A stretch of 42,713 bases of DNA from a virus (IMGVR_UViG_2636415959_000003:1-42713), one strand, 5' to 3'. Shown: positions 2,760 to 36,052, counted from the stretch's first letter. The notes: generated from the sequence alone by a model not told the origin. Translations and numbers: made by a program.

Positions 2760-3439
2760 TAAAGTAATCTCCCCCATGCGCCGTCATCAAAACCGGCGAT
2801 GTATTCGTTATCCATGTCAAATCCAAAGAATTTTGTTCCTTCGGACGGTGTTTCGACCGAGGGTGTTTCAACGCCGCCAGCCCATACACCAGCAGCTTTA
2901 ACGGTGAGATAACCCTGTTTGATAGCGGCTATCAGTTCGAGTGACACATCAGAAATATCAGTCTCGGGAAAAACCCAGACCGATATCGTCATGTCCTGGT
3001 TATCGACGATCTGCATCTTCAGTCCAGAGCCTGCGGTAGCAGCGTCAAGGATGGGAGGCAGAGAGTCGTTCCGACCATCCCAGTTGTTGATAGCGATTTT
3101 CGCTTTCAGAATGATGCGGTACGTCTCATCACCCAGCGTCGTATAGCCAGAATCAGGATCATATGGCCCTTGCCAGATGCCCTGGTCATATCCGAGCCCG
3201 TCAGTGTCCCAGCTGAAATAAACGCCGCTAATTGGCTGGCTGACTATACGACTACGCCCAATCCACAGGCCGAGGATATCGAGTTGCACGCCAACCGCCG
3301 TATCGATATCGAAGGCTGTTACAAGCCCTGACATAGTGCTGGACACATCAATCAGCGGGCGGGTGCTCAGATCTATATGGTCAAAAAAGAGTGGCTTGGT
3401 AGCATGGTAGTTAGTGATCAGTTCGGTGTATTTGCTCAT
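2759..3439 (-). CDS. Baseplate/tail protein (Mu gp48-like, tentative)
   Basis: Position immediately upstream of the tail fibre; ATGA coupling at 3436-3439. Family assignment from gene order only. Confidence 0.45.
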   Translation of the reverse strand: MSKYTELITNYHATKPLFFDHIDLSTRPLIDVSSTMSGLVTAFDIDTAVGVQLDILGLWIGRSRIVSQPISGVYFSWDTDGLGYDQGIWQGPYDPDSGYTTLGDETYRIILKAKIAINNWDGRNDSLPPILDAATAGSGLKMQIVDNQDMTISVWVFPETDISDVSLELIAAIKQGYLTVKAAGVWAGGVETPSVETPSEGTKFFGFDMDNEYIAGFDDGAWGRLL

Positions 3440-33079: not shown

Positions 33080-33559
33080 ATGGATAAAATTAATTACCCA
33101 CCCCTGTTTGAGCCAGGGCTCCATGACATGGATGAAGCTGGATTAAAATCGTATTGTGTCGATTGCTTTCCTTCATCATCCAGGCGAGGCATGCTATACT
33201 GTAATTTTATACAGCTACTCGAATCTATTCGAGAATTATCTGCTCAATATGGCTGTTTTACAGAAATATGGGTTGATGGTTCATACACCACGTCTAAACC
33301 AGAGCCTGATGATATTGATATTTTGTTGGTATGTGACTATAGCAATATAAACTCAATACCTGTCATGCTTCGGGGCCGCGTCGATAATTTGCTTGACCGA
33401 AACTACATCAAACAAAACTACAAAATTGATGTCCTACTACTCATGAAGAATTTAGATGACCCTAACTATGATTATGAGTACTGGCGTAGCTACTGGCGCG
33501 GTTGGTTTGGTTTTGATCGCAGTGAAAACCCGAAAGGGTTAGTGAGGATTTTTTTATGA
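33080..33559 (+). CDS. Nucleotidyltransferase-fold protein (minimal Pol-beta-like NTase), cargo gene A
   Basis: 159 aa; WVDGSYTTSKPEPDDIDILLV fits the hG[GS]-x9-13-DhDh NTase signature, with a later acidic residue (KIDVLLL). AT-rich; AAGG RBS. Confidence 0.55.
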   Translation: MDKINYPPLFEPGLHDMDEAGLKSYCVDCFPSSSRRGMLYCNFIQLLESIRELSAQYGCFTEIWVDGSYTTSKPEPDDIDILLVCDYSNINSIPVMLRGRVDNLLDRNYIKQNYKIDVLLLMKNLDDPNYDYEYWRSYWRGWFGFDRSENPKGLVRIFL

Positions 33560-34488
33560 ATGATAAATCAATGTTTAAAAATTGCGATAAACGCATTGAT
33601 TTCATTCAAAAAGAAGTCGATGCAATGAAGCAAAACAAAACCAGGTCCTTTGCTGACATGCTTCTTTATCGCTCCATGGATTCTCATCTGAGCGATTTGA
33701 AGGCCGAAAAATTAAAGCAAGATAGTCGGCACCCACTTATCGATTTTTTTGAGCTGCGGCTGAAAGGCTCTGAGGTTGACTTTGGCTCTATTCCTTTAGA
33801 GCTGCTTGGGGCTATTTCAACAAATCTTGCAGCGCTAATACAAAGAGCAACACACAAAATTGCCTCAGGCAAGGACTCAAAAAAAGTTCCCTACGACGTG
33901 AAAAGCTCCTTAAACCTCAGGCTGGCTGATTTATCCCCTGGGTCTACAAAATTGGGCGTCACCTTCTCTACAGGAATAGCAGAATTAGTAGAAACAGTAC
34001 CCAGCAAGGCTGTAAAAGGCATATTCGATTTGTTGTTAAGCGATGACGACAACAACTTCATGAATCACGTCGCTGAAATTGGATACAATTCCACTGTAAG
34101 CCTTAAGAGAATCGTAGAGGAATGCGATAAACACAACTTAACATTTGATGCAAGTTGGACCGGTCCATTTAGTAATGGCACCAAGGTGGCAACTATTGAC
34201 TCCAATAAAATTAAGTACTTGGTGAGTAGACTTACATCAACCATTTCATCCCCTCCCATTACTGAAACGGTTACAGGCGAACTGGTCGTTCTATCCAAAT
34301 ATGGGAAGCTGGAGCTTGATGTTGGTGGTGAACATTTAAAGGCTTCCTATCCGATTGAAATGCTAGATTTAATACAAAAAAAACACAAGGTCGGACAGAT
34401 TGTTTCTCTTTTAGTGGAGACTACTGAGATTCACAATGATCGCATAGGTCTGTACCGTAAAAACCATCTTGTTAAATCGGTTCTTTAA
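33556..34488 (+). CDS. Hypothetical 310-aa protein, cargo gene B (partner of the NTase-fold protein)
   Basis: ATGA overlap with gene A (33556-33559); no TM segments. One Rx4H match (RSMDSH), not diagnostic. Confidence 0.55.
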   Translation: MNDKSMFKNCDKRIDFIQKEVDAMKQNKTRSFADMLLYRSMDSHLSDLKAEKLKQDSRHPLIDFFELRLKGSEVDFGSIPLELLGAISTNLAALIQRATHKIASGKDSKKVPYDVKSSLNLRLADLSPGSTKLGVTFSTGIAELVETVPSKAVKGIFDLLLSDDDNNFMNHVAEIGYNSTVSLKRIVEECDKHNLTFDASWTGPFSNGTKVATIDSNKIKYLVSRLTSTISSPPITETVTGELVVLSKYGKLELDVGGEHLKASYPIEMLDLIQKKHKVGQIVSLLVETTEIHNDRIGLYRKNHLVKSVL

Positions 34489-34495
34489 TATCTCA

Positions 34496-34520
34496 CCCGG
34501 CCACCGCGCCGGGTTTTTTA
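34496..34520 (+). terminator. Rho-independent terminator after cargo operon
   Basis: CCCGG-ccaccgcg-CCGGG followed by TTTTTTA, 8 nt after the gene B stop. Confidence 0.65.
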
Positions 34521-34603: not shown

Positions 34604-34628
34604 GCCCGCCCGTGCGGGCTTTTTTATT
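34604..34628 (+). terminator. Second tandem rho-independent terminator
   Basis: GCCCGC-ccgt-GCGGGC followed by TTTTTTATT. Confidence 0.65.
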
Positions 34629-34821
34629 GTCCTTTCCGCACTATCTCAGCTGCATCCCTGTTCACACCCTTACCTATCACGTTTCCCGTTTCCTTCCGGT
34701 ACCGTTCCAGCTTGTCGATGATGTTTTGCTGGGTCATAGGTAAATCTGCCAGTGACAACTCCATGACCGCCCGCCCCATGGCGTGAACCATCATGTTCAC
34801 TCTTTCTTCATCCAAGTCCAT
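34624..34821 (-). CDS. Hypothetical small protein (65 aa) divergent from PL
   Basis: ORF ending at the second terminator; no convincing RBS inspected. Confidence 0.35.
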   Translation of the reverse strand: MDLDEERVNMMVHAMGRAVMELSLADLPMTQQNIIDKLERYRKETGNVIGKGVNRDAAEIVRKGQ

Positions 34822-34860: not shown

Positions 34861-34965
34861 ATGCCACCAAAAAATAAATCAACATAAAAATCAACAGTAA
34901 ACGATTAAATCAACAAAATAAATCCACAAGGTGTTGACCTACAAATCCACATGATGTTTAATTAC
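34861..34965 (+). promoter_or_regulatory. Left operator/promoter region (OL/PL)
   Basis: Plus-strand TTGACC-17-TTTAAT with ATCCACATGATG between -35 and -10 (same motif as in OR), plus three AAATCAACA repeats upstream. Confidence 0.55.
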
Positions 34966-35026
34966 TCCATCGAAACGAAACATCGACAGCTGAGCGAAGT
35001 TAGCCAGCGGCGGACAGCAAGTCGCC

Positions 35027-35039
35027 TGCTTTTTAACAA
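35027..35039 (+). promoter_or_regulatory. boxA-like element TGCTTTTTAACAA in PL leader
   Basis: 12 of 13 match to the rrn boxA TGCTCTTTAACAA as recalled; about 70 nt downstream of the PL -10. Confidence 0.35.
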
Positions 35040-35378
35040 CATGCAGATTTACAGCGTCAATGACCTGTTAAGACCCCTACACGTAAACGTGCTGTATCAC
35101 CGGGTGCGATCCGGTCGGTGAGAGAGTATCCCCGCGCGAGAGCGAGAACGGCGTGAGAACGGGCAACACTGGCAGGGAGTTGGCGCTGACCAATACAGGG
35201 AATGTTATGGGATGTGGTGAAGGGTTCATGGACGGGAATATGTCGCACGTAAAGCGGCGAGGCCCGAGGAGCTATTGCCGAAGATAAGTAGGCCGAATCG
35301 GGTCGAAATGGGTCTCCCACCTACCACAGCACCAAAGCATTTCTCCCGCATCAGCGGGTAACTAAGTGGAGAGTAAGT

Positions 35379-35567
35379 ATGCACAAGTGTCAATTCTGTG
35401 GGTACTTTCTGGCATCTGAAGAGATGCAGAGAATATCTGTAAACATGGTTGGCAGGCCTTACAACATCTGCATTCCATGCTCAGAAAAGTACAAAAAGAA
35501 AGGCCTGTGGGATTCGGCAAAAAACGATATCGACTGGAAAGCACTTCCATGCGTCGATGAGACATAA
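35379..35567 (+). CDS. Small zinc-ribbon-like protein (CxxC…CxxC)
   Basis: 62 aa; first ORF of the PL operon; GGAGAG RBS. Confidence 0.5.
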   Translation: MHKCQFCGYFLASEEMQRISVNMVGRPYNICIPCSEKYKKKGLWDSAKNDIDWKALPCVDET

Positions 35568-35600
35568 CCGCATCAGCGGGTAACGACAGAGGGTAAGGGG

Positions 35601-35897
35601 ATGATCGACGACATCAAGCGCATCGACTCAATGATAAATGCGCTTCGCAATATGAAACAGGACATCAAGCGTCAGCAGAAACTAAGTGAAATAAACAGTT
35701 TAGACCTGTCGCCGAAGCAAGCTCAAAAGCGCAATGCCGATGCTGACTGGATTGCGATGGAACAGATTAAGCGTCGGCATGAGCTGCACGCTCTGTCTGT
35801 TGAGCTTGGGTTCGCTGAGCGCCGGGAAAGTTATGCTCCATTTGAATTAACTGACGGGTGGCACCGATTCGACCACAAGCCGCGCGAACCTCAATAG
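35601..35897 (+). CDS. Hypothetical protein (98 aa)
   Basis: AGGGTAAGGGG RBS; followed by a terminator. Confidence 0.5.
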   Translation: MIDDIKRIDSMINALRNMKQDIKRQQKLSEINSLDLSPKQAQKRNADADWIAMEQIKRRHELHALSVELGFAERRESYAPFELTDGWHRFDHKPREPQ

Positions 35898-35918
35898 CCG
35901 CCTAACCAGCGGCTTTTT
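35897..35918 (+). terminator. Intra-operon rho-independent terminator (tL1-like)
   Basis: GCCGC-ctaacca-GCGGC followed by TTTTT directly after the stop at 35897. Confidence 0.55.
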
Positions 35919-36052
35919 CATACCTGGAGTCATTTACGAGTGGCTCAAGTTATGACAACCGGCGGCCATCCACCGCCCATTGAAACACTGAATAAATGCG
36001 TTGAAGTCTTGTATTAACCGTTCCGTTCGCCGCGATAAGGCCAAGAGGATTT

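Follow-up and report, generated by a model that had tools for sequence, protein, structure and literature searches.

The left early operon of a phi80-like lambdoid phage, analysed here within a viral DNA stretch of 42,713 nucleotides (nt) (IMGVR_UViG_2636415959_000003:1-42713, in the following the window), begins with an untranslated leader whose transcript contains a 113-nt RNA of four helices, arranged as a four-way junction and preceded by a boxA of the ribosomal RNA operon (rrn) type. The four-helix structure is real and under selection. The most economical reading of the sequence comparisons is that boxA and junction RNA together would form the antitermination determinant of the left operon, nut- or put-like in function and distinct from both in architecture. 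A more specific version, in which this RNA would act in cis, assisted by host Nus factors and independent of any N-type protein, is favoured because of the distribution of the RNA and the rrn-type boxA; we regard it as a good possibility that falls somewhat short of being probable. The locus itself is already known as the pL/nutL/N region of phi80. What appears to be new is that the phi80 'nutL' is a conserved family of 113-nt four-way-junction RNAs led by an rrn-type boxA, that this family is apparently inherited independently of the phi80 'N' and essentially to the exclusion of put RNAs and of N proteins with an arginine-rich motif (ARM), and that the phi80 'N' family appears ordinarily to be the gene after N.

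Architecture of the pL leader

Comparison with related phages identifies the window as a mosaic phi80-like lambdoid phage. Relative to phi80 (JX871397), positions 34900-35362 are 99.6% identical and positions 35568-35650 are 100% identical, with near-identity continuing to 36000; the pL-nutL-"N"-tL1 region (34900-36000) is 99% identical to that of phi80 except for a single 222-nt insertion carrying an open reading frame (ORF) of 62 amino acids (aa). Window coordinates of phi80 features are those of the JX871397 annotation, transferred through the alignment at 99.6% identity. The elements which carry the argument are:

34877-34962, + strand: pL with three CI operators (OL; 34877-34896, 34921-34939 and 34944-34962), from the sequence and the transferred JX871397 annotation
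35027-35039, + strand: rrn-type boxA TGCTTTTTAACAA, whose first 9 nt (35027-35035) are the phi80 'nutL boxA, putative'
35064-35176, + strand: four-way-junction RNA of 113 nt, from RNAalifold, pair counts and a covariance model
35064-35069/35171-35176 and 35075-35077/35161-35163, + strand: junction helices P1 and P2, respectively
35080-35083/35088-35091, + strand: junction hairpin P3, corresponding to the phi80 'nutL core, putative' (35080-35091, phi80 annotation)
35092-35106/35112-35126, + strand: junction helix P4 with the invariant apical GGGYGCGAUCC
about 35132-35151, + strand: P5, a variable junction hairpin with a GAGA tetraloop
35601-35897, + strand: ORF of a 98-aa protein, 100% identical to phi80 'N' (Pfam PF26859)
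35896-35918, + strand: intrinsic terminator tL1A, from a terminator scan and the phi80 annotation

An earlier description made from the sequence alone (in the following the sequence-only reading) had proposed a pL-like promoter, TTGACC-17-TTTAAT, followed by about 400 nt of GC-rich leader with a boxA-like element, lacking any ORF of 60 aa or more before 35379 and any recognisable N gene. The promoter is exactly that of phi80: TTGACC (34934-34939), a 17-nt spacer and TTTAAT (34957-34962) are the -35 and -10 elements annotated in JX871397, which a generic promoter scanner misses only because the -10 element carries a T at position 2. Between pL and 35379 the + strand indeed contains no ORF of at least 60 aa, the largest two comprising 56 and 44 aa, and a mechanical 87-aa ORF with a GTG start lies on the - strand (35057-35320). 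A coding reading of the leader through any of these three was rejected in view of single-nucleotide variation in the P3 loop length, covariation of the helices and independent recombination of the leader modules. The attribute GC-rich is marginal (54.4% G+C in the leader versus 52.2% in the whole window), and with 31% G and 24% C the leader is better described as G-rich. Due to the 222-nt insertion the homologue of phi80 'N' lies about 630 nt from pL and not 400. The intrinsic terminators proposed for both early operons are present, namely tL1A on the left (+), which the terminator scan places at 35896-35914, and a terminator-like site in the rightward operon at 27054-27035 (-).

The boxA-like element at 35027-35039 likewise holds. 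By pattern search TGCTTTTTAACAA is the sole exact copy in the window, and it deviates at one position from the functional consensus GYTCTTTAANA (PMC5725501). BoxA lies about 25 nt upstream of P1, is present in all family members of the junction RNA and near-invariant across the alignment of 24 representatives described below; it matches the consensus perfectly in 10 of 58 distinct members and as a one-base variant in most others. NusB binds to the rrn boxA with about 17-fold higher affinity than to the boxA of lambda nutL (PMC2800207). A phi80 record from 1985 contains a 278-nt 'nutL regulatory signal' which corresponds to window positions 34990-35267 and thereby takes in boxA, the complete junction RNA and the beginning of a long hairpin further downstream (module C, see below). 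Directly 5' of boxA a weak terminator-like hairpin (GGCGGACAGCAAGTCGCC, 35009-35026) was noticed, whose U-tract is boxA itself (35009-35039); an extension of its pairing would sequester the first bases of boxA, and the hairpin is not conserved in more distant family members.

Structure and covariation of the junction RNA

Scanning IMG/VR with a 17-nt pattern from the P4 apex yielded at least 120 stretches, and the prophage counts below rest on the matches listed. The filtered matches together with the loci of the phage collection comprised at least 113 true loci with at least 85 distinct sequences. RNAalifold, applied to 24 representatives at <97% identity, gave 28 base pairs, 12 of them with compensatory changes. 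In 58 distinct sequences 97.1% of the cells were paired, compared with 35-44% when the 3' partners were slid, 12 pairs changed on both sides versus 1-5 in the slid controls, and none of 500 shuffles reached the observed pairing score. In P3, for example, A-U alternates with G-C (13/11) and G-C with A-U (10/9), while at the base of P4 one pair is C-G (12), G-C (7) or A-U (4) and another U-A (12) or C-G (9). The apex of P4 is invariant in this first set because it served as the search pattern. A second set was ascertained independently, via the PF26859 protein: 95.2% of its cells were paired versus 31-44% after sliding, and the inner pairs of P4 covary as well (C-G to U-A, G-C to A-U).

Hairpin P3 combines a 4-bp stem with UAAA, AAAA, AGAAA or CAAA loops, and P5 occurs in GNRA versions (CGC-GAGA-GCG, CCC-GAGA-GGG, CAC-GAGA-GUG, CUC-GAAA-GAG), elsewhere being replaced by other hairpins. 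G-U pairs are valid on the + strand only and, therefore, the functional strand is that of the pL transcript. RNA folding of the leader, which the sequence-only reading had suggested as a check, is uninformative for the single sequence (z = -1.2); the structure is visible only by comparative analysis, which gives the four-way junction.

The covariance model scores the window copy with 195 bits and, with filters off, finds it as a single copy in the window. No copy was detected by the model in HK97, lambda or HK639, nor in the virulent phages encoding PF26859. Rfam 15 gave no match for the whole window at gathering scores, and for 34900-35950 at E<=10 only chance-level matches were obtained. Furthermore, the full-text literature contained no match to five leader strings (boxA with flank, the P4 apex in three forms, and the P2'-P1' strand). 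Despite the cloverleaf-like junction, an identity as tRNA or tmRNA was rejected, since ARAGORN finds none.

Distribution and gene context

BoxA and junction RNA occur in more than 100 enterobacterial prophages, including Eru1 Stx2a phages, in Escherichia, Enterobacter, Klebsiella, Kosakonia, Edwardsiella and Xenorhabdus, and the lineages with compensatory changes are only 65-80% identical. Module B (35027-35214), which includes both elements, is 94% identical in the Oslovirus/Eru1 Stx phages phi191, PA2 and phi346. In a scan of genome contigs at least seven true matches were found, in Enterobacter and Kosakonia genomes as well as in L349 and L364, the other matches being mostly GC-rich chance hits. 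The element is contained in 223 of 5426 complete E. coli genomes (4%), DH5alpha and DH10B among them, and in the E. coli genomes among the matches listed no feature is annotated under it. Being present, unannotated, in these common strains, the RNA is easily tested. The chromosomes of DH5alpha, DH10B and NEB 5-alpha carry boxA and junction RNA at 100% identity, in copies which we take to be remnants of phi80dlacZdeltaM15.

A CI-type repressor is encoded upstream in 87 of the 110 unique RNA contexts listed, and the first downstream gene is widely variable. Within 100 contexts with enough downstream sequence, PF26859 was found in 7, an HK225_041-like small basic protein in 8, an ARM N in 2 (both Edwardsiella phages) and none of these in 83. 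One of the Edwardsiella phages, Edno5, provides the clearest case of both systems together, having an ARM-type N in addition to the junction RNA at its pL; an ordinary nutR, consisting of boxA CGCTCTTTAAAAA and GCGCC-GATACA-GGCGC, was observed there between the cro-like and the next gene (L372, 395-432). A Xenorhabdus prophage has a divergent copy of the junction RNA together with PF26859.

Eru1 Stx phages were reported to lack N, CII and CIII (PMC8044961). In the Eru1 Stx2a phages the junction RNA is followed by a strong terminator (AGACGCGCCAGCGTCT-T7) and then by rha, with no credible gene in between. Between leader and rha of Eru1/Oslovirus Stx phages there is also a second promoter-like site, TTGACT-17-TATATT, followed by a strong intrinsic terminator (3333-3361 and 3423-3438 in phi346, L002). 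The 37-65-aa ORFs which PHANOTATE places between leader and rha in Eru1/Oslovirus Stx phages are probably not genes, and three of them overlap the leader RNA.

Viewed from the protein side, 64 viral loci encoding PF26859 comprise 17 with boxA and junction RNA, 21 with an ARM N, about 6-9 with an HK639-type put-like RNA and a remainder in which none of the three was detected. The junction-RNA loci overlap neither the ARM-N loci nor the put-like loci; at L397, however, part of a put-like RNA may occur together with a fragment weakly resembling N. HK639 and the window share pL and the first ~45 transcribed nt, whereupon putL follows in HK639 and boxA with the junction RNA in the window. The idea of an RNA-centred mechanism, raised in the sequence-only reading, thus gains plausibility from a strongly covarying structured RNA in the putL position of HK639.

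The 98-aa protein of the phi80 'N' family

The product of 35601-35897 is 100% identical to the protein named N in three phi80 records. According to precomputed labels it belongs to PF26859, 'Phage_N_antitermin', the label borne by 120 of the 120 homologues among the matches listed; the corresponding PHROGs entry reads 'unknown function'. Lambda N is a disordered arginine-rich peptide. For the 98-aa protein, which is basic, AlphaFold2 predicts two long helices forming a helical hairpin plus a beta hairpin, with a predicted local distance difference test score (pLDDT) of 90. The 98-aa protein is not an N of the ARM type; judged by this model, it is a well-folded helical protein. It gave no match to Pfam PF25694 (N_peptide) at the curated cut-off, HK97 N scoring 57.8 bits in the same search, and no BLASTP alignment with lambda N; tblastn with seven N-like queries revealed no arginine-rich N anywhere in the window. 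Foldseek with the model found no significant relative in the PDB, and the weak coiled-coil matches to Gfh1 and DksA2 (E ~1-3) are not evidence. None of the small proteins has a model in NCBIfam. The 'VTARG' C-termini were discounted as a mark of the N family because, on our reading, the codons concerned overlap a ribosome-binding site which is conserved in front of the PF26859 gene.

The neighbourhood of PF26859 in other phages is more telling. Directly upstream of it, Proteus and Serratia prophages encode an arginine-rich N (ARMs SQRRYERRAEFLARKRE, ANRRHARRKAEA and KERCKLRRKLRRAAERA), and a Xenorhabdus prophage encodes a 78-aa protein without a canonical ARM. In Erwinia phage 59 an ARM N (KSRYKARRAAKVAERR) is found two genes upstream, and in the viral contig L391 a copy of the 98-aa protein with 96% identity is preceded, at a distance of about 1 kb, by a lambda-type N (MDAQARRRERRAAKQ...). 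A 100%-identical copy stands behind an HK639-type put-like RNA in the viral contig L379, and homologues occur in virulent phages, too. On these comparisons the phi80 'N' is not an N homologue, and it co-occurs with true N genes elsewhere. The name of PF26859 probably does not describe its function, the protein usually being encoded after a true arginine-rich N or behind a put-like RNA, and it is more probable than not that the specificity factor is something other than this 98-aa protein.

For the sequence-only reading these results cut both ways. Its statement that no N is recognisable stands for an arginine-rich N, by Pfam, BLASTP and tblastn, and falls insofar as 35601-35897 is the protein named N in phi80 and a member of PF26859. 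It had asked whether the small ORFs include an N homologue, which would speak against its proposal; the phi80 'N' at 35601-35897 formally raises that challenge, while the comparative data indicate that it is no such homologue. The suspicion that a true N is missing survives because in other phages the phi80 'N' is found alongside true N genes.

Comparison with known antitermination systems

The leader resembles lambda nut in its location just downstream of pL, with boxA at the 5' side and tL1 after the first genes, and in the P3 hairpin with its A-rich loop followed by a long leader hairpin of the lambda kind. In contrast to lambda, whose boxA is weaker (CGCTCTTA), the boxA of the window is rrn-type. 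P3 is located 40 nt and not ~8 nt from boxA, has a 4-bp stem with a variable loop of 4-6 nt and forms one of the arms of the 113-nt junction, whereas lambda boxB is a free-standing 5-bp hairpin with a GNRA-like pentaloop. Moreover, no ARM N is encoded downstream and the window contains no copy in the right operon. With put of HK022 and HK639 the leader shares the slot, the occurrence in phages without N and the downstream family PF26859. However, put consists of ~70 nt in two stem-loops, has no boxA, requires no Nus factors and occurs as putL and putR (PMC9378689), whereas the window RNA is a single-copy 113-nt four-way junction after a boxA. The junction RNA shows no sequence similarity to HK639 putL, and the covariance model does not match HK639. 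Consequently, membership in the put class was rejected on size, fold, boxA, copy number and lack of similarity to HK639 putL, and the put-like two-stem antiterminator which the sequence-only reading had envisaged does not apply.

The rrn leaders have in common with the window a near-consensus boxA (GYTCTTTAANA), an untranslated structured transcript and no phage-type N; they differ in that no boxC-like element was seen in the window, that the RNA structure is unrelated and that the leader belongs to a phage early operon with intrinsic terminators. Module C, finally, has the same kind of outer stem as the lambda N-leader hairpin and the same place between the nut equivalent and the first ribosome-binding site, but its interior sequence differs and in the window it precedes non-N genes.

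Possible mechanism and alternative explanations

If boxA and junction RNA antiterminate with host Nus factors, boxA would emerge about 60 nt after the transcription start and recruit NusB/S10 and thereby the Nus complex. The junction RNA would fold co-transcriptionally about 35 nt further on and might take the role which boxB-N plays in lambda and put in HK022, stabilising a persistent complex of RNA, Nus factors and polymerase. The polymerase modified in this way could pass tL1A (35896-35918) and the left-operon terminators that follow it. By analogy with lambda, module C (35197-35345) may be a separate cassette tuning translation and processing of the first gene.

Several observations weigh against this proposal. 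With filters off the covariance model detects no second, nutR-like copy in the pR operon despite the terminator at 27054-27035, and searches with boxA and P3 patterns as well as blastn-short of the leader against the rest of the window found nothing there. The nut and put systems have left and right copies, the junction RNA is single, and no nutR is annotated in phi80. Intrinsic terminators under strict criteria follow the RNA in 24 of 82 cases on the sense strand versus 18 of 82 on the antisense strand, which is no clear enrichment. The two Edwardsiella phages with both junction RNA and ARM N indicate that the RNA is not always a replacement of N, and the complete leader, folded as a single sequence, has an unremarkable energy (z = -1.2). 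In addition, the 1985 work on phi80 N and nutL reportedly attributed antitermination to the 98-aa protein.

That attribution corresponds to the classical explanation, according to which the 98-aa protein would be an unconventional N that binds the nutL RNA, either boxA with P3 or the whole junction, and antiterminates at tL1 together with Nus. The phi80 records speak for it by naming the protein N and annotating nutL and tL1 around it, as does the Pfam name Phage_N_antitermin; the protein is basic and, according to the model, confidently folded, the Xenorhabdus prophage pairs its divergent RNA with PF26859, and 14 of the 20 loci whose protein is near-identical (>=96%) have the RNA. This is the main rival and a serious one, although we hold it to be rather unlikely. 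The protein has neither similarity to lambda N nor a Pfam N_peptide match, the RNA is absent at 47 of the 64 PF26859 loci and PF26859 in 93 of the 100 RNA contexts, and copies that are identical or 96% identical are preceded by a put-like RNA in L379 and by a lambda-type N in L391. Furthermore, PF26859 follows an ARM N in Proteus, Serratia and Erwinia phages, homologues exist in virulent phages without the RNA, and there is no nutR in the phi80 annotation or in the window. Post-transcriptional control by boxA, junction RNA and the long hairpin, in which a loop between Nus and boxA together with RNase III processing would set translation or stability of the first left-operon genes, on the model of suhB or of the autoregulation of lambda N, appears distinctly improbable. 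It would fit the single copy upstream of the first gene as well as module C, which is a version of the lambda N-leader hairpin and immediately precedes the first ribosome-binding site, and boxA-Nus complexes are known to repress translation of suhB and, from ~200 nt away, of lambda N (PMC5725501). Yet the first gene differs among carriers, module C can be lost with the junction RNA retained (phi191, HK225), a terminator or more than 200 nt often separates the RNA from the first gene, and the slot equivalence with N and put favours a transcriptional role.

The junction RNA might also be released, for example by RNase III at the adjacent hairpin, and act in trans as a stable RNA, be it against host defence or as a decoy or sponge that titrates a host factor. 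It is the first thing transcribed upon infection or induction, it is compact, with a four-way junction, a GNRA tetraloop and an invariant apical loop, and it is independent of the neighbouring genes. Such a role would leave the tightly linked conserved boxA without an obvious function, however, and neither a terminator nor a processing site is found at the RNA 3' end; the RNA is no tRNA or tmRNA and belongs to no Rfam family, and we consider this explanation very improbable. That phage recombination left the leader behind as a functionless remnant is suggested by its mosaic structure with several breakpoints, but is contradicted by the covariation across six genera and can practically be dismissed, because compensatory changes across lineages of 65-80% identity require selection on the structure.

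Beyond the single operon, the boxA-linked junction RNA may even represent a third, self-sufficient class of lambdoid early antitermination relying on host Nus factors only, which would explain the left-operon expression of the N-less Eru1 phages and make both the phi80 name 'N' and the Pfam name wrong; this wider claim is doubtful, albeit worth considering. Processive antitermination in lambdoid phages has two known solutions, N/nut and the put RNA, and a boxA-led RNA would, if true, be a third way and connect the nut sites of phages with the boxA system of ribosomal operons. It would also account for left-operon expression in N-less phages, including the Eru1 Stx2a phages of outbreak strains of enterohaemorrhagic E. 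coli (EHEC). As these phages, reportedly devoid of N, carry the RNA, it may control early gene expression in highly virulent EHEC phages. The phi80 name 'N' has been carried for 40 years and is now the name of a Pfam family.

Further leader segments and neighbouring features

The remaining features of the leader and its first gene are:

34969-35026, + strand: module A, the 5' leader segment common to HK639, HK225, KO-TP1 and ENT1, with a predicted transcription start
35180-35193, + strand: small hairpin UUGG-CGCUGA-CCAA, from by-eye comparison with HK97 boxB GGCGCTGACAAAGCGC in the alignment
35197-35345, + strand: module C, a long imperfect hairpin and variant of the lambda N-leader hairpin, from alignment and folds
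35347-35378, + strand: hairpin CCCGC-AUCA-GCGGG followed by a Shine-Dalgarno sequence, common to KO-TP1, ENT1 and CobraSix
35379-35567, + strand: 62-aa ORF with CxxC...CxxC (PHROG 19863, unknown function), an insertion relative to phi80 whose cassette is also found in HK225

Local alignments with related phages show that the leader consists of exchangeable modules and is a mosaic with several breakpoints. HK639 contains the module A stretch CCATCGAAACGAAACATCGA.AGCTGAG.GAAGTTAGCCAGCGGCG, after which its sequence departs into the RNA annotated there as putL-like. The small hairpin at 35180-35193 looks like a 3'-truncated boxB of the P22/HK97 type (GGCGCUGAC...; GGCGCUGACAAAGCGC). In other lineages GUGCGAAGCGC-type hairpins were observed at this position, followed by the small basic protein HK225_041 (PKKRQKPRKQAIKEAQ), which could be an N analogue.

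The outer stem of module C has the family consensus CTTTGGGGTGTG / CCACACCACCAAAG, common to lambda, the window copy being GTTATGGGATGTGGTG / CACCTACCACAGCACCAAAG. In direct comparison the family stems CTTTGGGGTGTGGTG / CACCTACCACACCACCAAAG closely match those of the lambda N leader (GGCTTTGGGGTGTGTG / CACACACCACCAAAGCT), with the window differing at a few positions, and the basal stem covaries between versions (GAAUG/CAUUUC, GUGAAC/GUUCAU and AGUGC/GCACU). The lambda N-leader hairpin is said to be an RNase III site which modulates N translation. Just upstream of N in HK97 and in Stx phages of the 933W type (Min27, Stx2 phage 86) the stretch 35208-35337 recurs with 91% identity. The cassette precedes N genes of the lambda type (L142) and of the HK97/933W type (L003, L005, L148), another ARM N (L149) and non-N genes; phi191 and HK225 have lost it and kept the junction RNA. 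A 17-nt core, CCGCATCAGCGGGTAAC, at 35347-35363 and 35568-35584 forms the direct repeats which bound the 222-nt insertion. The CCGCATCAGCGGGTAAC hairpin with its ribosome-binding site appears to be a junction for swapping small genes of the left operon.

Upstream of pL, between it and cI, lie two genes (33080-34488, +) with PADLOC matches to the candidate defence system PDC-M63 (A, 4e-41; B, 7.5e-45). The pair is located where lambda has rexAB and phi80 has gene 40A, its first member also being a DUF6932 protein, and is followed by two strong terminators (34495-34514 and 34604-34619). Just upstream of pL lies a 65-aa ORF at 34624-34821 (-), PHROG 3975 of unknown function, which is kept in phi80, HK225 and HK639 regardless of the antitermination element that follows pL.

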